From positions 1-39,258 of the IMG/VR virus record IMGVR_UViG_3300045988_163958: a DNA stretch of 39,258 bases; one strand, 5' to 3'. Below are positions 19,156 through 38,490 of this stretch, piece by piece (within the stretch, counting starts at the first letter, position 1; each line of letters starts with the position of its first letter). Origin of the DNA: a virus. The notes under the pieces were generated by a model that did not search any database, had not been told where the DNA came from, and saw only the letters and a program-made list of their open reading frames with translations. Both the position numbers and the translations under genes were made by a program.

Positions 19156-19383
19156 TTTCTCATCTCCTTTTTTTATTGAGATGTTGGATAGGCAGTGTAT
19201 ATCCTTACCTATCCATCTTTTATGCAGTTTTTGTTAAAAGTTTGAACTGCTAACAGCGAAAGGTAGTTTGTGTTATCCTAGGCCACTCCTACCAGGTAGA
19301 ATTATTTAAGTTTAAGGACTTCACATATAAAGCTCCTATACCCAGACAGGCGTACTTTACATCTTCACTTATAACCAGTAAAA

Positions 19384-19460
19384 GGGAATAACAGGATTCG
19401 AACCTGTATAATGCTCTCAAGCAATTGTTTTACCTACCTCGTAAGTTAAACTATATTCCC
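19384..19460 (-). tRNA. tRNA-like element. The acceptor stem and T-arm are perfect; the D and anticodon regions are irregular.
   Basis: The minus strand reads GGGAATA...ACAGG-TTCGAAT-CCTGT-TATTCCC. The acceptor stem is 7/7 paired and the T-loop TTCGAAT is consensus. The D and anticodon arms cannot be folded canonically by hand. One option is a TTAC/GTAA stem with loop GAGGTAG. Confidence 0.45.
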
Positions 19461-19756
19461 ATATATCCCCTCGTGTGAGGGAAGGAGGACATTTATATGA
19501 AAAAAATTAGTATGGGGTAGACATCGACCGTGAGGTATACCCTCATTGAAACACATAACTTCAATACTGCTATCTTTAGCCTTTATTATTTCATGTACAG
19601 AGTTATGTGTTTTAATCAAGATAAAATAAAAAAGGTGGACTAAATAAGCCTTAGACTTTTCATCTAAAGATTATTTGATCCACCTTCCTGAGGTCGTAAA
19701 CCAATTATATATTCTATTTTCTATATTATATAATATTATTAGGAATTTTGCAACAG

Positions 19757-25366: not shown

Positions 25367-25792
25367 CTATAACTTTTCTGTTTTTTCTTTCGCCTGTTCT
25401 AATATATCTTTTATTAATTCAAACTTACCATCTTTTAAACTTAAATATTCCAATCTTTCTATTATATTGAATATTATTATTTTTTGTTGTTCTTTATCCA
25501 TAAGTTTTACTAATTCAAAAAGATCACCTAAAAAATTTTCTTTTTGTTCTTTTGGCATAATATAATCTTTTACATCATCTGGTAATAATTCATCACAATA
25601 TGCCTTCATCAATCTTTTTTTATCTAGTGGGTATGTTTTTAATAATTTTTCAAATAAATTTCTTGATATAGGAGTAACTCCTTTTTCTACTTTATCAATG
25701 TAAGAAAAATTATTATCTATTTTTTCACCCAGCCCTCTTAAACTATCACCGTGCTTAATTCTTATTTCTTTTAAAATTTCTCCAAACTTCAT
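25367..25792 (-). CDS. cI-like XRE-family repressor.
   Basis: The HTH is FGEILKEIRIKHGDSLRGLGEKIDNNFSYIDKVEKG. The gene is divergent from the early operon and lies between the two operator copies. Confidence 0.65.
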   Translation of the reverse strand: MKFGEILKEIRIKHGDSLRGLGEKIDNNFSYIDKVEKGVTPISRNLFEKLLKTYPLDKKRLMKAYCDELLPDDVKDYIMPKEQKENFLGDLFELVKLMDKEQQKIIIFNIIERLEYLSLKDGKFELIKDILEQAKEKTEKL

Positions 25793-31423: not shown

Positions 31424-31594
31424 ATGTGGTATCGTGCTGAAGATGTAGCAAAGCTTTGTGAGTGCTCTAAAAGCAAAGCTTACAATATAATAAATTCTCT
31501 AAATAAATTAAAAAGTAAGGAAGGAATACCAGTAATAGCTGGAAAAGTTAATAAAGATTTCTTCCATGAAAAAATGGGCATTAAAAAAAGTTGA
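31424..31594 (+). CDS. xis: Excisionase-like HTH protein.
   Basis: RBS AGGAGG. The HTH is AEDVAKLCECSKSKAYNIINSL. The gene is immediately upstream of int. Confidence 0.5.
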   Translation: MWYRAEDVAKLCECSKSKAYNIINSLNKLKSKEGIPVIAGKVNKDFFHEKMGIKKS

Positions 31595-31605
31595 TTAAAA
31601 ATATA

Positions 31606-31645
31606 AAAGAGGGTAAGATTAAAAAGATCGCCCTCTTTTTTAAGG
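31606..31645 (+). terminator. Hairpin with a T-run between xis and int (attenuator or terminator).
   Basis: AAGAGGG-(17 nt)-CCCTCTT is followed by TTTTTAAGG. Confidence 0.4.
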
Positions 31646-31653
31646 AGGATTTT

Positions 31654-32667
31654 ATGAAAAATGAGAACGGCAGTGGAAGTGTATATAAGTTAAAAGGTAA
31701 AAGGAGGAAACCATGGATAGTGAGAATTACAACTGGCTATAGTTTGGAAGGTAAGCAATTAAGAAAAACTATAGGAACATATAAGACTAAAAGAGAAGGG
31801 CAGGAAGCTTTATTATCTTATTTAAAAACCCCTGACCTTTTTTCAAATAAGACATTTGAAGAAGTTAAAAATATGTGGTGGGAGAGTTACAAAAAAAAGA
31901 ATGAAAAAGAAACAACACTTATAACTTTAAAAAATAGAGTTAAAATATTGGAACCACTTTTTAAAAAAGAAATAGCTGCTATAAAACTTTTTGAATTGCA
32001 AGAAGTATTCGACAATATAAAATTTTCTTGGAATTTTAAAAATGGAGTAAAAAGTGCGTTAAATATGATATTTGATTTTGCTTTAAAAAATGACTTAATA
32101 AGTACAAATAAAGTAAAATTTATTGAATTAGGAAAAAAAGATAGTGTAGTAGAAAGAAAAATATTTACAAAAGAAGAAATAGAAATTTTGTGGGATAACA
32201 CAGATAAAATTTTTTCTTGCTTTGTTCTAATTCTTATTTATACTGGTATGAGGATAGGTGAACTTTTAAATTTAAAAATATCTGATATAAATATAGAAAA
32301 TAAAACTATACAAATAAGAGAAAGTAAAACAGAAAACGGAATAAGAACTATTCCTATAAATTCTAAAATTTTCCCATTAATAACTAAAAATATGAGTATT
32401 TACCAAGAATATTTTTTAGAAAGAGATAAAGAACCTTTAAATTATAAAATGTTTCTACATTCTTTTAAACTATTATTAAAAGAATTAAAAATACAAAGGC
32501 ACACTATCCATGATACAAGACACACATTCGCAACTTTGTTAAATAATTCTAATGCAAACTCAACTTCTATTGTAAAATTAATAGGACACAGTAGCTTTTC
32601 CACAACAGAAAATACTTATACCCACAAAGATACAGAGGAACTAAGAAAAGCTATAGAGAGTATATAA
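31654..32667 (+). CDS. int: Tyrosine integrase.
   Basis: The C-terminal catalytic motifs are HDTRHTFAT and GHSSFSTTENTYTH. RBS AAGGAGG precedes ATG at 31654, which is preferred over the TTG at 31591. Confidence 0.85.
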   Translation: MKNENGSGSVYKLKGKRRKPWIVRITTGYSLEGKQLRKTIGTYKTKREGQEALLSYLKTPDLFSNKTFEEVKNMWWESYKKKNEKETTLITLKNRVKILEPLFKKEIAAIKLFELQEVFDNIKFSWNFKNGVKSALNMIFDFALKNDLISTNKVKFIELGKKDSVVERKIFTKEEIEILWDNTDKIFSCFVLILIYTGMRIGELLNLKISDINIENKTIQIRESKTENGIRTIPINSKIFPLITKNMSIYQEYFLERDKEPLNYKMFLHSFKLLLKELKIQRHTIHDTRHTFATLLNNSNANSTSIVKLIGHSSFSTTENTYTHKDTEELRKAIESI

Positions 32668-33205
32668 ATTTGTTAGCTATTTGTTGGCTAAAAGAAAAAA
32701 ATAGAAGAAAAAATATGGAATATATAAAATATAAAAATATAAAAATATAAATTTCTCAAGAACTTAGAAAAATAGCTGATTTAATAAAATCATATAAAAG
32801 ATATTTTAGATTCATCTATATATTAATAAAAATAAGATTTTAAGATATTATACAAACGTAAAAATATTAATTTGATAGCTACCTGTTAGCTATGTCAAAA
32901 AAGATGGGCGATCACCTTTTTATGTTAGTATAATTTTTTAAATAAAAATGATATAATATAAAAAAAAGTGGGTGATTATATGAAAAATAAAAAAGAAATT
33001 CCAGAAGAAATTAGGATTCAAATAGAAAAGGATTTTATAAAGTTTATGAATAGTCCTGAGAAAAAAAGATTGATAAAAAATTAAAACATATAAAACTTGA
33101 TAGCCAACATGAAAAATTTTTAAAAGATTTATTTTTTGAATTAGACTTAACTATAATGGAAATTCAAAAATCAAATTTATAGCAGAATAATTAAAAAAGG
33201 TGAAA
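32668..33205. other. AT-rich non-coding region downstream of int, a candidate attP. It holds TTGATAGC / GTTAGCTAT arm-type repeats and an AAATATAA microsatellite.
   Basis: Repeats occur at 32672-32695, 32872-32900 and 33096-33115. The tandem ATAAAAAT repeat is at 32728-32760. Confidence 0.3.
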
Positions 33206-33430
33206 TTAATCACCTTTTAAAATTTTTTCTCTTTCTTCTATTAAAGATTTAAATATCTCTAAATCTTCTAAAGAAGAATGATTTTTAATAAAGTTTTTAC
33301 CAGCACTTTTCATGCTTAGGATTTTTTTCCTTTCTTTTGCACCTGGATTTGCTTCCAGATATCTTTTATTTGCCTCTACTTGTTGTTCATTAGAAGCATA
33401 ACCTCTCCTCTTTCCCATTATGCAATCCAT
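33206..33430 (-). CDS. Hypothetical basic helical protein (74 aa).
   Basis: Second gene of the operon driven by the promoter at 33685-33713. The start overlaps the upstream stop. Confidence 0.4.
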   Translation of the reverse strand: MDCIMGKRRGYASNEQQVEANKRYLEANPGAKERKKILSMKSAGKNFIKNHSSLEDLEIFKSLIEEREKILKGD

Positions 33431-33651
33431 ACATCTTCTATAATGTTATCTTCTACTTTAAATAAAAATTGTGTAGAATTAGGAGTGTTAATATAAGCTA
33501 TGTAATCATAGCCATTATTATTGCTTTCATTTACAATTACTTCATTCACTCCTTCTTCTTCAAAATCTTCAAATGCACAAACTACTTCATTGTAATCAAA
33601 TTCTGCTCCTATAAGGTTGTGTAAATTTCCTAAAACATCATATTTTGTCAT
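33418..33651 (-). CDS. Small acidic protein (77 aa).
   Basis: RBS GGAGG. The sequence MTKYDVLGNLHNLIGAEFDYNEVVCAFEDFEEEGVNEV is strongly acidic. Confidence 0.45.
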   Translation of the reverse strand: MTKYDVLGNLHNLIGAEFDYNEVVCAFEDFEEEGVNEVIVNESNNNGYDYIAYINTPNSTQFLFKVEDNIIEDVWIA

Positions 33652-33684
33652 ATTAAAACCTCCATTTGTTTTTTCTAATAATTT

Positions 33685-33713
33685 ATTTTAACATAATCTC
33701 AAGATTATGTCAA
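33685..33713 (-). promoter_or_regulatory. Promoter TTGACA-N17-TAAAAT with the near-palindromic operator ATAATCTCAAGATTAT in the spacer.
   Basis: Read on the minus strand. It is a near copy of the element at 34071-34099. Confidence 0.5.
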
Positions 33714-33721
33714 TGTTTTTT

Positions 33722-34039
33722 TTAAAATCCTAAAGCTTCTTCCACTTTATATCTAAGTGGAGATTGTCCGTATGCTCTTTTTGCTAATAAATCTACATAA
33801 AATTTTTTAGTTTGGTTTTTAAAATATAGATTTACATATATTCTTTTTTCTCCATATTTTTCCCAATTGTTAGCAGTATAATTCACACCTGCTTCATCTA
33901 AAACAGATTTAACTATATTTAGAGGATTTTTCTTTTCTTCCCAAGCTTGTTTTAAGCCTATAGATAATCTAACTGAATAATTTCCTTCCAAAGTTTTTGC
34001 TATTTGGTGTCCTCTTTTCATTAAATCTCTTTTAGTCAT
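33722..34039 (-). CDS. Hypothetical protein (105 aa).
   Basis: RBS GAGGAGG. It has its own operator-bearing promoter. Confidence 0.45.
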   Translation of the reverse strand: MTKRDLMKRGHQIAKTLEGNYSVRLSIGLKQAWEEKKNPLNIVKSVLDEAGVNYTANNWEKYGEKRIYVNLYFKNQTKKFYVDLLAKRAYGQSPLRYKVEEALGF

Positions 34040-34070
34040 TTTTTATTCCTCCTCTATATTTTATATTTAT

Positions 34071-34099
34071 AATATATCATAATCTTAAGATTATGTCAA
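34071..34099 (-). promoter_or_regulatory. Promoter TTGACA-N17-TATATT with the perfect 16-bp palindromic operator ATAATCTTAAGATTAT in the spacer.
   Basis: Read on the minus strand. Confidence 0.5.
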
Positions 34100-34133
34100 C
34101 AACTTTTTTAAAATATTTTTAAAATAAAAAAAA

Positions 34134-34149
34134 CAGGGATTTCTCCCTG
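34134..34149 (-). terminator. Intrinsic terminator after the His-rich gene.
   Basis: CAGGGATTTCTCCCTG is a perfect hairpin. The minus strand reads T8 after it. Confidence 0.6.
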
Positions 34150-34152
34150 CTC

Positions 34153-34503
34153 TTACATCTTAAATTTACTAATTTTCTGCGATAACTCATGGGCTTCTTC
34201 GATTAAATCTTCATAGAAGCATTTCCATAATTCAGCCATACTATGGTGTTTATGTTCTTCATGCTCATGGTGTTTTTCTGTGTCATAACTTCTTGTTTTA
34301 CTCTCATGTTCTCTCATCATGTTTTGTATCTTCTCATCATCTTTTTGGAACATATCAAGTCTTGTTCTTGCTCTTGTTAAATACCAAGATGCCATATCCA
34401 TATTTTCAGCTTCCTTTTCTTCTTTTGCATACTCATATGCCATTTCAGCATCATTATAGTCATCTTTAAGCATATCTATCATTCTTTCCAATCTTTCTTT
34501 CAT
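34153..34503 (-). CDS. His-rich acidic helical protein (116 aa).
   Basis: RBS AAGGAGAGG. It contains EKHHEHEEHKHH. Confidence 0.45.
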   Translation of the reverse strand: MKERLERMIDMLKDDYNDAEMAYEYAKEEKEAENMDMASWYLTRARTRLDMFQKDDEKIQNMMREHESKTRSYDTEKHHEHEEHKHHSMAELWKCFYEDLIEEAHELSQKISKFKM

Positions 34504-34943
34504 TATTTAGTCACCTCTCCTTTTTTTATACTTGTTTCTACAGCCATTGTTTCTGTAGGTGTAGTTGGAGTATACACAGGAAATACAAAGCTCGTACAAG
34601 GCAAATTACAAGTTCCTACATAGTTTAAAGAAGGAACATCTGTTTTAAATCTTGTTGGATATATTCTCCTATTTCTTATCTGATCGCTATAAACTAAATT
34701 TCCACATTTATTAATTAGTGGGACTTGTGTTGTAGAACTTCCTATAGTTATTACTACTGGAATAGGTGTTGCAGAACTTGGAAGAGTAGTGGCTATTAAT
34801 AAACATACATTTTCATTGTTGTTAAAAGATTGGCTAGGCTGTACATTTAATACAAGTTTTCCTCCTGTTATTGTTGCTGTTGTTACAGTTATTAAATGTC
34901 TGCATCTATTACATCTGCAACTAGCATTTAAATTGCAATTCAT
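34503..34943 (-). CDS. Cys/Thr-rich protein (146 aa).
   Basis: RBS AAGGGGG. The N-terminus is MNCNLNASCRCNRCRH, followed by Thr/Pro-rich tracts. Confidence 0.45.
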   Translation of the reverse strand: MNCNLNASCRCNRCRHLITVTTATITGGKLVLNVQPSQSFNNNENVCLLIATTLPSSATPIPVVITIGSSTTQVPLINKCGNLVYSDQIRNRRIYPTRFKTDVPSLNYVGTCNLPCTSFVFPVYTPTTPTETMAVETSIKKGEVTK

Positions 34944-34968
34944 ATTTTTTACCCCCTTTAATTAAAAA

Positions 34969-34986
34969 GGTGGGAATTATCCCACC
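34969..34986 (-). terminator. Intrinsic terminator after the Gly-rich gene.
   Basis: GGTGGGAATTATCCCACC has a 7-bp perfect stem. The minus strand reads a T-run after it. Confidence 0.55.
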
Positions 34987-35020
34987 CTTAAAGTCACGAC
35001 AATTAGTCGGAATAATTCAA

Positions 35021-35713
35021 CTAGATATTTCCACATCCATTAAATCCACCGCATCCATTACCAAATACTGGTGTTCCCCATGGGTTACAGCTTTGGTATG
35101 CTGGCACTGGTGTAGGTCTAATAGCATTTATAATGTTATTAGATTGTGCTTGTAGAGTTGCAGAAAGTGTTAAATCTTGGTTTCTGTCTCTAAGTTCCTG
35201 AATAGTATTAGCTGTCATCATATCCACGATTCTTTGTGTATTTGCATTTCCAGCAGCTATTAAATCTCTAGTGTTCATGTTAGCATTTGTGATTATATCA
35301 CAGGTGTTCTTAGCATTTTCATATCTAACAGAATCTATATTTCTGTTAGTAGTGCAGCAGCAGCTATCTAGGTTTGAATTTAGATTAGCAAATCCTAAAC
35401 CTATTAGTTCTCTTGTTTGCCCATTTTGTTGAGCCATTGCATAAGTAGAATCACAGATTCCGTTTGCTAGTCCATTTATTCCAGATTCTATAGCTCTATG
35501 TCCATTTTTAAGGTCCTGTAAAGCGAATTGATCTGCCATTAGTTCTCCACCTGCAAATCCTCCAGCTCCGAAGCCATTACGCCCCCAACCAAACATCATA
35601 GCAATGATTAGGAATACTATCCAACCTCCACCTGCTCCAAAACCGAAACCGTCTCCGCCAGCCATTCCAGTTGGCATCACAGGCATTACGCCTTCTGTGC
35701 TAAATCCTGCCAT
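35021..35713 (-). CDS. Gly-rich membrane protein (230 aa) with a Cys/Gly-rich C-terminus.
   Basis: Strong RBS TAGGAGG. The N-terminus GDGFGFGAGGGWIVFLIIAMMFGWGRNGFGAGGFAGG is a TM helix flanked by Gly repeats. The C-terminus is NGCGGFNGCGNI. Confidence 0.5.
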   Translation of the reverse strand: MAGFSTEGVMPVMPTGMAGGDGFGFGAGGGWIVFLIIAMMFGWGRNGFGAGGFAGGELMADQFALQDLKNGHRAIESGINGLANGICDSTYAMAQQNGQTRELIGLGFANLNSNLDSCCCTTNRNIDSVRYENAKNTCDIITNANMNTRDLIAAGNANTQRIVDMMTANTIQELRDRNQDLTLSATLQAQSNNIINAIRPTPVPAYQSCNPWGTPVFGNGCGGFNGCGNI

Positions 35714-35765
35714 AGTTTATACCTCCTATTGTTTTTTTATTTGTAAAACACCCCCGTGTTATTAC

Positions 35766-36017
35766 CTAGTAATTAAATTTTCTTCCTCCGCCTTGAACTG
35801 TTGGCGTTGCTCCTGATCCTACTGGACTACTTGGCTGTATGCTATTAGGGTCTATTCCCCTTTGCTGTAAAATGTTGTTTCTCTGCTCTGGCGTCATTTG
35901 CTGCACCTTTTGCATCATTTCCTGTTGCTGCTGCGGTGTCATTTGCTGCCATTGTTGCATCATCTGTGCTGCTTGTGGCCCTAATGCTTTTTGTAACATC
36001 ATCATCATTGGATTCAT
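35766..36017 (-). CDS. Met/Gln-rich low-complexity protein (83 aa).
   Basis: Strong RBS AAGGAGGT. The sequence begins MNPMMMMLQKALGPQAAQMMQQWQQMTPQQQQEMMQKVQQ. The hairpin AACAC-CCCC-GTGTT follows the gene. Confidence 0.45.
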   Translation of the reverse strand: MNPMMMMLQKALGPQAAQMMQQWQQMTPQQQQEMMQKVQQMTPEQRNNILQQRGIDPNSIQPSSPVGSGATPTVQGGGRKFNY

Positions 36018-36495
36018 AGCCTACCTCCTTAAATCCTTTGCTTTTTAATAGTTCATACATTTTCTTATCAATAATTTTCCAACTTCCATCTTCCGTTATA
36101 ACTTCTCTAGTTATAAGAGATAAAATAGTGTTTTGGTTAGTTGTTACTACCTGGTCTAAATGTCCGCCCTTTCTCTCTTCGTTATACATAATAAATGCTG
36201 TTGCCGAAAATTCAGGTTGCTTATATACAGGTGTAAAAATCACTTGCTGTGGAATATCTTCTCCCCATTCTATACTTCCATACTTTCCATTCTCTGGAAT
36301 TATAAAGGTATCCTTTCCACACTTACTACATTTAAAATGAAAGCCTATAGGAATTTTAGGTTTCCATTCATAACTATAACCATTTAAAATTGGATTCTGC
36401 TTGTTTTGTGGGTTCATATAGTCCACAGAATTAAAAATCATTTCGTTAATGTTATCATTTCCACAATGTGGACAAGCCATTTTTTCAATATTCAT
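35845..36495 (-). CDS. Zinc-ribbon-containing protein (216 aa as an open frame). Its last 57 codons overlap the Met/Gln-rich gene out of frame.
   Basis: RBS GAGGTGAG. The zinc-ribbon motifs are CPHCG...CSKCG. The C-terminal tail is low complexity. Confidence 0.45.
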   Translation of the reverse strand: MNIEKMACPHCGNDNINEMIFNSVDYMNPQNKQNPILNGYSYEWKPKIPIGFHFKCSKCGKDTFIIPENGKYGSIEWGEDIPQQVIFTPVYKQPEFSATAFIMYNEERKGGHLDQVVTTNQNTILSLITREVITEDGSWKIIDKKMYELLKSKGFKEVGYESNDDDVTKSIRATSSTDDATMAANDTAAATGNDAKGAANDARAEKQHFTAKGNRP

Positions 36496-36822
36496 TTTTT
36501 CTCACCTCAAAGATTTATTTCTGCCATTTTTTCACCTTTGACTTTGATAACTATATTTTATCTTTTATAGCAAAATAAATCTAAAAATATACCTAGATAA
36601 TACCTTATAATATATTTATTTGGTTGTAAAAAATCAACTTTTTATTGACAGAGTAATATAAATGTGTTACCATTAATTAGAAGCACAAACCCATTGGGTT
36701 ACGTTTAATAAGGTTTTAAAAGCTCTGATGATATAAGCACTCACTTGTTGGGTGCTTGTTTCATATATATCAAGAGGTCAGAGCCTTGGTATATAGCAGA
36801 CCTTATTAAATGGAGGTGCTGA

Positions 36823-36906
36823 ATGGATTTTCTAAGAGAATTAGCCTTGCAGGTGCTTGCCGGTATACTAGCTAGTATCATCTGCAAATGGTTAGATAGG
36901 AAATAG
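36823..36906 (+). CDS. 27-aa Ldr/Fst-family type I toxin-like peptide.
   Basis: RBS GGAGGTG. The sequence is MDFLRELALQVLAGILASIICKWLDRK. The tract AGILAS-I...W..RK recalls E. coli LdrD, recalled from memory as ...APVIAGILASMIVNWLNKRK. A 140-nt GC-rich leader precedes the gene and a terminator follows it. Confidence 0.45.
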   Translation: MDFLRELALQVLAGILASIICKWLDRK

Positions 36907-36920
36907 CATCACACCTCGCC

Positions 36921-36946
36921 CAATGGGGCTTTTTTATTTTATAGGT
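36921..36946 (+). terminator. Intrinsic terminator after the toxin-like ORF.
   Basis: GCCC-AATG-GGGC is followed by TTTTTTATTTT. Confidence 0.45.
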
Positions 36947-36950
36947 ATCA

Positions 36951-36975
36951 AAAAAGAGGGATTTAATCCCTCTTT
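36951..36975 (-). terminator. Intrinsic terminator after the RHH gene.
   Basis: AAAAGAGGGATTTAATCCCTCTTTT has a 10-bp stem. The minus strand reads T6 after it. Confidence 0.55.
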
Positions 36976-36976
36976 T

Positions 36977-37201
36977 CTATTTTTCTATGCTTTTTGATAT
37001 AGAGTTTAAAACTTCTACTGCCTGTTCTAATACTCCTTTTTTCCCATTTTTATATTCATCTAAATATCTTCTTAATGCTTCGTTTATTATATAAGTTTGT
37101 GTTAATCCAAAGCTTTCTGAAGTATCTTTTAATCTTTCTAATTCTTCGGCTATTTCTTTGGTAGTATTGAAGCTAATTTTTATATATTCTTTTTGTTTCA
37201 T
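36977..37201 (-). CDS. Ribbon-helix-helix (CopG/Arc-like) DNA-binding protein.
   Basis: The beta strand is KISFNTT and the helices are KEIAEELERL and TQTYIINEALRRYL. Confidence 0.5.
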   Translation of the reverse strand: MKQKEYIKISFNTTKEIAEELERLKDTSESFGLTQTYIINEALRRYLDEYKNGKKGVLEQAVEVLNSISKSIEK

Positions 37202-37218
37202 CAGCTCCCTCCTGGAGT

Positions 37219-37518
37219 TTATTTATTTTCTATTATTTTATCTAGCTTTGTTTCTATTCTATCCAGTTTTTTTGCTTGTTCTTCTGTTATTCTGTTAAAC
37301 TCTATTCTTGTAACATAGTAATTACTTAAATTTTCTCTACTTTTTTCTAATTTATCTATCACTTCCCTATGATTTACTATCTTTAATTTTATTATTTCTA
37401 TTTCTGTATTTACTATCTTTTGTTCCTTTCCTAATCCTATTATATAGGACCAAGTAAAACCTAGAGTTAAACTCAAAATAATAGATATCATATTTTCTTT
37501 TATTTTCTTCAAAGTCAT
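37219..37518 (-). CDS. Membrane protein with an N-terminal TM helix and a coiled coil (i-spanin-like or holin-like).
   Basis: The TM segment is ISIILSLTLGFTWSYIIGLG. A charged coiled coil follows. The gene sits in the lysis cassette. Confidence 0.4.
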   Translation of the reverse strand: MTLKKIKENMISIILSLTLGFTWSYIIGLGKEQKIVNTEIEIIKLKIVNHREVIDKLEKSRENLSNYYVTRIEFNRITEEQAKKLDRIETKLDKIIENK

Positions 37519-37563
37519 TCGGTCTCCTTACTGGGAATGGCAGTATCCCAGATTGTTGTTATA

Positions 37564-38052
37564 TTATAGTTTTATTCCTGCTTTTATTCCTCCAACTATA
37601 TTATTGTTACCTTTTAAATCTGTTCTTCCTTCTAAGTATCCTTCTACATATCCCTTACTATTTATATCTTGCTCCATTTTCTTTGTAACTCTTAATACAT
37701 CTTGTTGTGCTCCGTTAGTAACTGTTTCAAGAACTTTATTTACAACTGTTAGCTGTTTTTCTTTGCTGCTTTTAAATGTTTCTTGTAGCCCTTCTAGGAC
37801 ATCTTCAATTAAATTTATAATAAAAATTTCTGATATCAGCCAAGAAATATACCATGGAATATTCTTTTTTAATTCTCTTATAGCAAATTGTAATTTTTCT
37901 TTACCTTGTCCAGAGATAAAGTTCTCTTCTGCTTGTACTACAATATAATAAGCTGCTGTTCTAAGCGTTTCTTTTTTGTATTTATAAAGTAAAATAGTAA
38001 TTATTATAATGGCTAAAATTGCAATAAAAACAAATATAGTTTCTCTGTTCAT
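37564..38052 (-). CDS. Putative holin / lysis membrane protein (two hydrophobic segments).
   Basis: The hydrophobic segments are FVFIAILAIIIITILLY and WYISWLISEIFIINLI. The gene is directly downstream of the lysozyme. Confidence 0.4.
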   Translation of the reverse strand: MNRETIFVFIAILAIIIITILLYKYKKETLRTAAYYIVVQAEENFISGQGKEKLQFAIRELKKNIPWYISWLISEIFIINLIEDVLEGLQETFKSSKEKQLTVVNKVLETVTNGAQQDVLRVTKKMEQDINSKGYVEGYLEGRTDLKGNNNIVGGIKAGIKL

Positions 38053-38490
38053 TTAACACTCTCCCTTATAAAGTTCAATTTCTCTTTCTCTTCTTGCTTT
38101 TAAAACTGTTAGTATTTTCCCACCACCTCTATTCCATCTTCTAAACTGTTCTTCTATTTCTCCTATAGGAGCAGAAACATTTATTTTTTTTAATAGAGTA
38201 CTTGTTTCAAATGCTTTAGTTCCTACATTAAAAGCAAAACTAACAAGTGCATCATATTCATTTTGTGTTAGATTTACTTTTACACTTCTATTAACAGAAT
38301 TTTCAAATCTTATAAGATCATTTTTTAAAAATTCTCTCGATTGTTCTTTAGTTATTTTCATTCTAGGCTTAACATCTTTTCCTGTATGTCCTACTCCTAT
38401 TGTTAAAACTCCAGCAGGACATATATATGTTGTCAAAACTTCCCCTTCTTCCTTTATAATAAATTCAATCCCTTTTTCACTTATTTTCAT
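38053..38490 (-). CDS. GH24-family phage lysozyme (endolysin) with no cell-wall-binding domain.
   Basis: GH24 motifs are present: EGEVLTTYICPAGVLTIGVGHTG and NEYDALVSFAFNVG. Confidence 0.8.
   Translation of the reverse strand: MKISEKGIEFIIKEEGEVLTTYICPAGVLTIGVGHTGKDVKPRMKITKEQSREFLKNDLIRFENSVNRSVKVNLTQNEYDALVSFAFNVGTKAFETSTLLKKINVSAPIGEIEEQFRRWNRGGGKILTVLKARREREIELYKGEC

Follow-up and report, generated by a model that had tools for sequence, protein, structure and literature searches.

In a temperate phage genome, two near-consensus promoters each hold a palindrome between the -35 and -10 hexamers. What do these promoters control, and what controls them in turn? The genome is IMG/VR record IMGVR_UViG_3300045988_163958, all 39,258 nt of which were analyzed here ("the window"). 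An earlier note on this DNA had likened the locus to operons that pair anti-CRISPR (acr) genes with anti-CRISPR-associated (aca) regulators. This likeness is supported by our analysis: the terminal gene of the locus encodes a small, basic, helical protein that is a sequence homolog of Aca13, a known repressor that binds within promoter spacers. We consider it probable that the locus, taken as a whole, is an Aca13-type, self-repressing, acr-aca-like unit whose cargo most likely serves an anti-defense function against an unspecified target.

The promoters, P1 and P2, lie on the minus strand exactly as the note had described them (Table 1). Each scores 11 of 12 against the sigma-70 consensus and has a TG one base ahead of the -10 hexamer, and they are the two best sites in positions 32600-37600, the region covered by our scan for consensus promoters. 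Promoter-like sites as such are no more frequent there than in shuffled sequences (22 against 26), so it is P1 and P2 themselves that stand out, not the region or the count. The palindrome is present in both spacers, but it is 18 bp long (CATAATCT-NN-AGATTATG) rather than the 16 bp first proposed. On the left it takes in the CA of the -35 hexamer, and on the right it closes with the TG of the extended -10. Across the 39-kb window there are exactly two copies of the 16-mer ATAATCTYRAGATTAT; allowing up to three mismatches adds one match, at position 19659, which is at chance level. Perfect palindromes of at least 18 bp number two, against a mean of 0.43 in Markov simulations. The description of the promoters as near-identical holds for the -35 hexamer plus operator (22 nt, one mismatch) and fails for the flanks, which differ. 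This pattern points to a functional unit in the shared stretch rather than to a remnant of a larger recent duplication.

The best candidate for the protein that reads this palindrome is the product of the last gene of the locus. It is indeed basic and predicted to be all-helical, as the note had held, but it most likely has 70 rather than 74 residues: its homologs begin at an internal ATG (33418), and this start creates a TAATG stop/start overlap with the preceding gene, which encodes a 77-residue protein. The 70-residue protein matches phrog_2277 (E = 6e-14), a family listed as being of "unknown function". Related clusters number 64 among 1.84 billion representative proteins, and tblastn found relatives in 42 phage records, from Streptococcus (21), Listeria (15), Clostridium (4), and Fusobacterium (2). 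When a profile of 42 family members was compared with the Protein Data Bank (PDB), it matched one solved structure, residues 85-141 of 8YE6 chain B ("A32"; E = 9.3e-12). That chain is AcrIIA32, whose C-terminal domain is Aca13 (PMC12282945). Direct comparison with AcrIIA32 of Streptococcus uberis phage 700P1 gave 37% identity over 49 residues by BLASTP (E = 3e-7) and a probability of 97% by hhalign (E = 8e-11). A single-sequence AlphaFold2 (AF2) model has three helices (residues 10-23, 25-46, and 50-67) at a predicted local distance difference test (pLDDT) score of 74; a fold search of the PDB with this model returned nothing, and a Pfam search of the protein returned no helix-turn-helix (HTH) or ribbon-helix-helix (RHH) match. 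On these sequence grounds, we regard the protein as a homolog of Aca13, the helical, non-HTH DNA-binding domain of AcrIIA32.

Aca13 itself is a helical repressor that lacks an HTH and that binds an inverted repeat between the -35 and -10 elements of acr promoters, as demonstrated by electrophoretic mobility shift and reporter assays; it represses its own plus the neighboring promoter, upstream (AcrIIA3) and downstream (AcrIIA27) (PMC12282945). Alanine substitution of any one of K92, W99, R107, and S111 abolishes its repression (PMC12282945). The residues aligned to these in the window protein, read off the alignments by eye, are Q13, Y20, K31, and S35, respectively. One is therefore identical (S35), two are conservative replacements (Y20 and K31), and one is changed (Q13); Q at the K92 position is nearly invariant across the wider Aca13 family. 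The 70-residue protein is a putative autorepressor, predicted to bind the palindromes of both promoters (O1 and O2), and the RHH protein encoded elsewhere in the window, which the note had nominated as a possible binder, is not needed for this role. The architecture of the family varies: Fusobacterium phage phiBB encodes a 136-residue protein (L008:2989-3399) with an N-terminal Aca13 domain followed by an acidic C-terminal extension of ~70 residues, the reverse of the domain order in AcrIIA32, and several database representatives of 134-236 residues share that layout.

In related loci, regulator and operator stay together while the cargo is exchanged. The operator-bearing set comprises seven independent Fusobacterium-type contigs, namely the window, L001, L003, L004, L006, L024, and L034; a scan for related loci with the 70-residue protein alone returned only a sister contig. 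Both 8-nt arms are intact in all nine operator copies on these seven contigs, and the center is TA, TG, or AC. Fixed arms and a free center are to be expected of a site read by a dimer, one arm per monomer. The aca13-family gene is last in all seven, preceded by genes for a 105- and a 77-residue protein, for the latter alone, or for an acidic protein of 65 or 74 residues. In the window and L006, P1 stands before the 105-residue gene, and P2 before the 77-residue gene and aca13; L001 and L024 have P2, the 77-residue gene, and aca13. In L003, P1 is followed by the 65-residue acidic protein and aca13, L004 has the same order with a stop codon in the 65-residue gene, and L034 has P1, a 74-residue member of the 65-residue family, a hairpin, and aca13. 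P1 and its 5' untranslated region (UTR) are identical in L003, L004, L006, and L034, and P2 is kept in L001, L024, and L006. The window and its sister phage L001 differ by a clean 386-bp insertion/deletion, the ends of which are the two promoter/operator copies; the 105-residue gene and its promoter thus form a cassette that was gained or lost by recombination between operators. The terminator-like hairpin upstream of P1, which is kept in L001, L004, L006, and L034, would by its sequence insulate P1 from upstream transcription.

Two further features of these promoters and their cargo may be recorded. In L004, the 65-residue cargo gene is broken by a premature stop (ATGACTAAATAA, L004:1053-1065) while promoter, operator, and aca13 are intact, which indicates that cargo can decay without loss of the regulator. 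An A-rich stretch, ATTTTAAAAAAGTTG, lies directly upstream of the -35 hexamer in the window (34100-34125, minus strand), L003, and L006, and also at L012:~195-215. It is common to the Fusobacterium P1 promoters and the s1 promoter of S. uberis phage 700P1, and could be either an UP-like element or a chance similarity of AT-rich sequences.

The same cargo also recurs with other DNA-binding modules. One member of the 77-residue family, P0080, is fused to an N-terminal RHH_1 domain (Pfam E = 1.3e-6, above the Pfam cut-off), and other copies bear N-terminal extensions. On contig L017, a gene of this family sits in an operon, and two promoters there each carry TTAAGCACTAAT in the spacer. In L035-L039, homologs of the 105-residue protein (P0005 and P0006) are followed by a fusion protein of 133-143 residues (L035:2395-3232) whose C-terminal half belongs to the 65-residue cargo family (67% identity, E = 1e-32). 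In these contigs, the promoter spacer holds ACGAGGCG where the palindrome would be, and the otherwise P1-like 5'UTR contains another copy of ACGAGGCG. That the operator changes when the DNA-binding module changes supports the Aca13 homolog as the binder of the palindrome. Fusions between Acrs and regulators have been discussed (PMC13551039), and cargo that is found with, or fused to, different DNA-binding modules matches that pattern. The N-terminal ~58 residues of the fusion protein gave a weak BLASTP match (E = 0.005) to a Bacillus subtilis AbrB sequence; a profile search of the PDB brought no confirmation, and this assignment is a lead only.

The surroundings of the L017 operon also deserve mention. 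Its promoters (TTGACT-17-TATAAT and TTGACA-17-TACAGT, at L017:~2330-2620, with further copies of TTAAGCACTAAT upstream) drive a 65-residue basic protein and an operon of 107- and 78-residue proteins. The basic protein appears RHH-like by eye, an assignment that Pfam did not confirm. Divergent from these promoters, in a mobile-element island, is a 219-residue open reading frame (ORF) (L017:664-1323, minus strand; logan SRR27700152_17013) whose similarity to Cas8c/Csd1 (PF09709, E = 2e-20) is limited to the N-terminal ~200 positions. Such a truncated Cas8c, carried by a mobile element, might act as an anti-CRISPR of the decoy type.

How, then, might the locus work? When its DNA enters a cell free of repressor, P1 and P2 would fire at full strength, to judge from their near-consensus hexamers and extended -10 elements. 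P1 would transcribe the 105-residue gene. Only 8 nt, with no terminator, separate the stop codon of that gene from the -35 hexamer of P2; transcripts from P1 thus probably read on through P2. P2 would transcribe the 77-residue acidic gene and the 70-residue gene, with translation of the latter possibly coupled through the TAATG overlap. From the experiments on Streptococcus Aca13, we infer that the 70-residue protein accumulates, dimerizes, and occupies the 18-bp palindrome. Because the palindrome takes in the final two bases of the -35 hexamer at one end and the extended -10 TG at the other, bound repressor would exclude RNA polymerase from both promoters. Cargo would be expected to appear in an early burst, with expression capped thereafter and low at steady state in lysogens; the cargo genes are exchangeable cassettes.

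As for the cargo itself, the note's description of the 77-residue protein as strongly acidic is borne out. The 105-residue gene is also where it had been placed, but its product is basic, not acidic. This protein scores 21.7 bits (E = 1.6e-4; cut-off, 70 bits) against the NCBIfam model NF033948 (AcrIIA3_fam), and sub-threshold matches to that model occur in all six members of its family; the true AcrIIA3 from phage 700P1 scores 177.7 bits. Identification of the 105-residue protein as AcrIIA3 is nevertheless unproven: the score is far from the cut-off, the BLASTP E value is 0.05, the hhalign probability is 2%, and the charge is opposite (isoelectric point (pI) 9.75 vs 4.87 for AcrIIA3). True AcrIIA3 matched no Pfam family. 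Marks of PF07410 ("Phage_Gp111") on homologs of the 105-residue protein were not reproduced, since P0005 and P0002 have no match to PF07410. The AF2 model of the 105-residue protein was poor (pLDDT 61), and a Foldseek search of BFVD returned nothing at E <= 1e-3. Profile searches of the PDB with the 105-residue, 77-residue, and fusion families were all negative. Members of the 77-residue family (18 clusters; 52 viral contigs of 5-173 kb) are spread widely across Fusobacterium-type phages and mobile elements. Searches of Pfam, PHROG, PADLOC, and the PDB brought up no relative, which makes this an orphan family.

Several facts weigh against the interpretation of this locus as an Aca13-type anti-defense unit. 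The window protein is only ~37% identical to Aca13, the critical residue K92 is a Q in it, and the window operator does not have the sequence of the S. uberis inverted repeat. In PADLOC, Pfam, PHROGs, NCBIfam, and the PDB, the cargo matched no validated anti-defense family and no Acr model above threshold; the search of anti-defense databases with the 77- and 105-residue proteins, which the note had advised, thus came back empty at threshold. This shortfall weakens the strict term "anti-CRISPR-associated", though not the claim about the regulator family. No aca13 gene lies within 2 kb in 51 of the 52 viral contigs that encode the 77-residue family, so this family is not tied to Aca13. A survey of CRISPR systems in eight Fusobacterium strains found mostly class 1 systems, with a type I locus in F. 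varium 27725; type II-A, against which the Aca13-linked Acrs of Streptococcus act, occurred in only one of the eight strains, an F. necrophorum, and not in F. varium 27725. Cas9 is accordingly an unlikely target here. Finally, the ORFs under the Aca13-type promoters of Listeria phage B025 and the S. equinus prophage Javan210 encode hydrophobic peptides of 33-54 residues, which are not typical Acrs. The Aca13 family may therefore regulate accessory genes in general, beyond Acrs.

Some of these facts would suit a different view, in which an Aca13-family repressor sits on a generic prophage "moron" operon whose cargo serves superinfection exclusion, host physiology, or lysis timing. The hydrophobic peptides of B025 and Javan210, the lack of a PADLOC or above-threshold Acr match for the window cargo, and the frequency of the 77-residue family in large, probably lytic phages without aca13 would all be at home there. 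However, the members of the regulator family whose cargo has been tested all control validated Acrs (AcrIIA3, A27, A32, and A35), two of the three cargo families consist of small, highly acidic proteins, and the cargo's recurrence with varied DNA-binding modules resembles Acr-regulator fusions; a generic moron operon is, in our estimation, unlikely. The island on contig L014, where acidic small proteins stand beside an LPD29 polyvalent-protein domain and a recombinase, also argues against it. The note had further allowed that the locus could equally be a toxin-antitoxin module. The acidic 77-residue protein would then be a type II antitoxin and the basic 74-residue protein its toxin, with the complex autoregulating through the palindrome, and the acidic/basic pair of small proteins, the TAATG overlap, the palindromic operator in the promoter, and the N-terminal RHH of one 77-residue homolog (a feature of many antitoxins) have the right appearance. 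Yet the supposed toxin is homologous to a characterized DNA-binding repressor domain, and sibling loci exchange the 77-residue gene for the unrelated 65/74-residue gene while the 70-residue gene stays. In one locus, the partner gene is interrupted by a stop; a toxin with a cognate antitoxin would tolerate neither swap nor break. No toxin-antitoxin or PADLOC model was matched, and the 77-residue family mostly occurs without a 70-residue partner. The Aca13 homology and the free exchange of the upstream gene leave a toxin-antitoxin pair scarcely credible.

The palindrome might also belong to another regulator, such as the RHH protein, the CI-like HTH protein, or a host factor, with some different role for the Aca13 homolog. 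The 22-nt string of -35 hexamer plus palindrome does occur in well-formed promoters of unrelated contigs (L019; L022/25/30/31, 47% GC; L027), and no Aca13 homolog was detected in the retrieved stretches of these. In the phage, however, the box is found only at P1 and P2, with no copy near the immunity region. A search of the GTDB representative genomes of all Fusobacterium species found no exact copy of the box with its -35 hexamer, which speaks against a global-regulator box of the host, a possibility that the note had raised. Three matches to it occur in public genome collections, none in Fusobacterium and all without aca13, which is about the number expected by chance on our own estimate (an AT-rich pattern of 20 bases should turn up about once in the low-GC part of the collection). 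Most metagenome matches to the operator are unrelated elements, two extra viral matches to the palindrome without the -35 hexamer are chance-like, and the serine-recombinase elements among the matches carry a longer, different palindrome of 26 bp. With the operator also changing along with the regulator module, a different binder seems quite improbable; it is on account of the metagenomic 22-nt strings without a nearby detectable Aca13 that we keep a small probability for it.

Two groups of these operator-like strings have features of their own. On L019, from an uncultured Clostridia metagenome-assembled genome (MAG), a perfect promoter, TTGACATAATCTTCAGATTATGTTATAAT, with the operator and register of P2, drives a protein of at least 316 residues with a DTHGHTxYSDG motif (L019:2353-3352); no Aca13 homolog is present in this 3.3-kb contig. 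The 26-bp palindrome (TTGACATAATCT..AGATTATGTCAA), or a promoter-like half of it, occurs in L002/L023 (a giant-virus MAG contig), L021, L026, L028, and L029. It stands upstream of serine-recombinase genes in small elements and is apparently unrelated to Aca13. Two copies of it 4637 bp apart in L029 suggest that this element is circular.

Returning to the Aca13-type anti-defense unit, we can propose a more specific version of it, albeit with rather more doubt than conviction. The basic 105-residue, acidic 77-residue, and acidic 65/74-residue proteins may be new anti-defense families of Fusobacterium phages with targets other than Cas9, for example the type I-B/III CRISPR-Cas systems that dominate the genus, or restriction-modification. 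They would dock as plug-ins to at least three interchangeable autorepressors (Aca13, RHH, and possibly an AbrB-like protein), each with its own operator, and the Aca13 family (PHROG 2277) would serve as a cross-phylum marker in phages of Streptococcus, Listeria, Clostridium, and Fusobacterium.

The genomic setting of the locus is that of a prophage end. The window has a siphophage gene set (large terminase, SPP1-type portal, tape-measure protein, phage lysozyme, tyrosine integrase, and HTH regulator) and is the genome of a temperate siphophage. Its integrase resembles that of Fusobacterium phage Funu2, an integrase fragment of which was the sole match when the locus was compared at the DNA level with deposited phages, and close homologs of all three small proteins (105, 77, and 70 residues) are annotated as F. 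varium. The phage is one of Fusobacterium, probably of F. varium. The locus is the final transcription unit after the lysis genes, lying between lysozyme and integrase and facing the latter. In prophage relatives, the junction with the host follows shortly beyond the operon terminator (host genes come next in L003). The Streptococcus and Listeria loci likewise lie between the lysin and the integrase/attachment-site end.

Table 1. Coordinates of the features of the locus and of other genes in the window.
Feature	Position	Strand	Description
Promoter P1	34099..34071	-	TTGACA-taatcttaagattatga-TATATT; 17-nt spacer; extended -10 TG
Operator O1	34078-34095		Perfect 18-bp palindrome CATAATCT-TA-AGATTATG filling the P1 spacer; full form CATAATCTTAAGATTATG
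Cargo gene 1	33722-34039	-	105 aa, basic, pI 9.75; in the 386-bp cassette absent from L001
Promoter P2	33713..33685	-	TTGACA-taatcttgagattatgt-TAAAAT; 17-nt spacer; extended -10 TG
Operator O2	33692-33709		CATAATCT-TG-AGATTATG on the minus strand; arms as in O1, central dinucleotide differs (one central mismatch)
Cargo gene 2	33418-33651	-	77 aa, strongly acidic, pI 4.05, net charge -14
aca13-family gene	33206-33418	-	70 aa from internal ATG at 33418; 74 aa (33206-33430) in the ORF list
Intrinsic-terminator-like hairpin	34154..34129	-	11-pair stem and T run; ends the preceding operon (116-aa gene)
Terminator-like hairpin	33218..33195	-	Operon end
CI-like HTH protein	25367-25792		
Tyrosine integrase	31591-32667		
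RHH protein gene	36977-37201		
Phage lysozyme	38053-38490		

A search of the locus against Rfam found no known RNA element. Between the RHH gene and a gene for a 216-residue zinc-ribbon protein, positions 36495-36977 form a stretch of ~480 bp without an ORF of 60 or more residues, in which divergent promoter-like sites occur at 36645 (plus strand) and 36637 (minus strand). The equivalent slot in F. varium contig L006 holds a PemK toxin gene and a SocA_Panacea gene on the opposite strand. Elsewhere in the window, 19383-19460 (minus strand) has an Rfam tRNA match (41.8 bits, E = 1e-5) that ARAGORN did not call.

An Aca13-type acr-aca-like locus is of a known kind; what is new here is the operator, the three candidate cargo families, and the first notice of such a locus outside the Bacillota. 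Work on Aca13 has so far been confined to Streptococcus, and the largest survey of Aca proteins omitted it because it has no HTH (PMC13551039). The window extends the family, and the design in which the operator fills the promoter spacer, to a phage of another phylum. Further, a defined 18-bp operator and three cargo families are open to guilt by association, the approach behind AcrIIA35, which was discovered by searching with Aca13 and its repeat sequence (PMC12282945). The swapping of regulator and operator around the same cargo is also a clear natural example of modular Acr-regulator evolution. Our search of the literature for a characterized anti-CRISPR from a Fusobacterium phage found no such study. 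According to a preprint, most Fusobacterium strains are genetically intractable; inhibitors of their defense systems might thus be of practical use, besides their biological interest.

The acr-aca13 locus of S. uberis prophages offers a close comparison. It has the order AcrIIA3 - AcrIIA32 (with Aca13 as its C-terminal domain) - AcrIIA27 (Song et al., NAR 2022, 2025; PMC8934645, PMC12282945). In phage 700P1, we found two identical promoters, TTGACT-ttttaacGTACATGTAC-TATAAT, so that the two-promoter operator layout noticed in the window is the same in this locus. AcrIIA3 (NCBIfam E = 7e-53) and AcrIIA32 follow one promoter, and a third gene, of 80 residues, follows the other; this third gene corresponds by position to AcrIIA27 of PMC12282945. 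Both loci thus have a homologous regulator domain, two near-identical strong promoters whose spacers hold an inverted repeat, a place after the lysin at the prophage end, and exchangeable small cargo genes. They differ in that Aca13 is fused to an Acr domain in S. uberis, whereas the window protein stands alone with 70 residues, and in the operator itself (GTACATGTAC in S. uberis against CATAATCT-NN-AGATTATG). The S. uberis cargo consists of validated Acrs and the host belongs to the Bacillota, whereas the window cargo includes no validated Acr and the host belongs to the Fusobacteriota.

Stand-alone homologs of Aca13 also occur in Streptococcus prophages, where they are represented by promoters s11-s18 of the published work (PMC12282945). 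In Javan210, an 18-bp palindrome lies in a promoter with a 17-nt spacer (TTGACA-TAGTATTAATACTATGA-TATAAT), in a register identical to that of the window, upstream of a stand-alone 70-residue homolog (48% identical) that is the last gene after the lysin. Its operator, CATAGTAT-TA-ATACTATG, shares with that of the window the outer CATA/TATG and the central TTAA (CATA....TTAA....TATG) but not the inner four bases of each arm (GTAT vs ATCT), and the cargo ORFs are different. In the Listeria phages B025 and LP-HM00113468, a promoter ~350 nt upstream of the homolog (hidden-Markov-model E values of 5e-19 and 7e-17) bears the 18-bp palindrome TATAATACATGTATTATA, and these homologs lie between the endolysin and attP/integrase. 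In B025 (DQ003639, ~22.9 kb), the homolog is an unannotated 69-residue ORF (L010:2989-3198, plus strand), situated between ply and attP and antisense to the annotated genes gp29/gp30; the annotation of that stretch may be on the wrong strand.

The likeness extends in outline to anti-CRISPR loci with other regulators, namely the Listeria acr locus of the HTH autorepressor AcrIIA1 and the operons of the RHH protein Aca14 (PMC13551039). Their HTH or RHH folds differ from the helical fold of Aca13, and there is no sequence relationship. Nonetheless, these systems (PMC13551039) and the window share a strong early promoter, a palindromic operator, and a repressor, a predicted one in the window, that is encoded in the operon. 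Fusion of regulator and cargo occurs there too, and neighboring promoters fall under a single regulator (PMC13551039).

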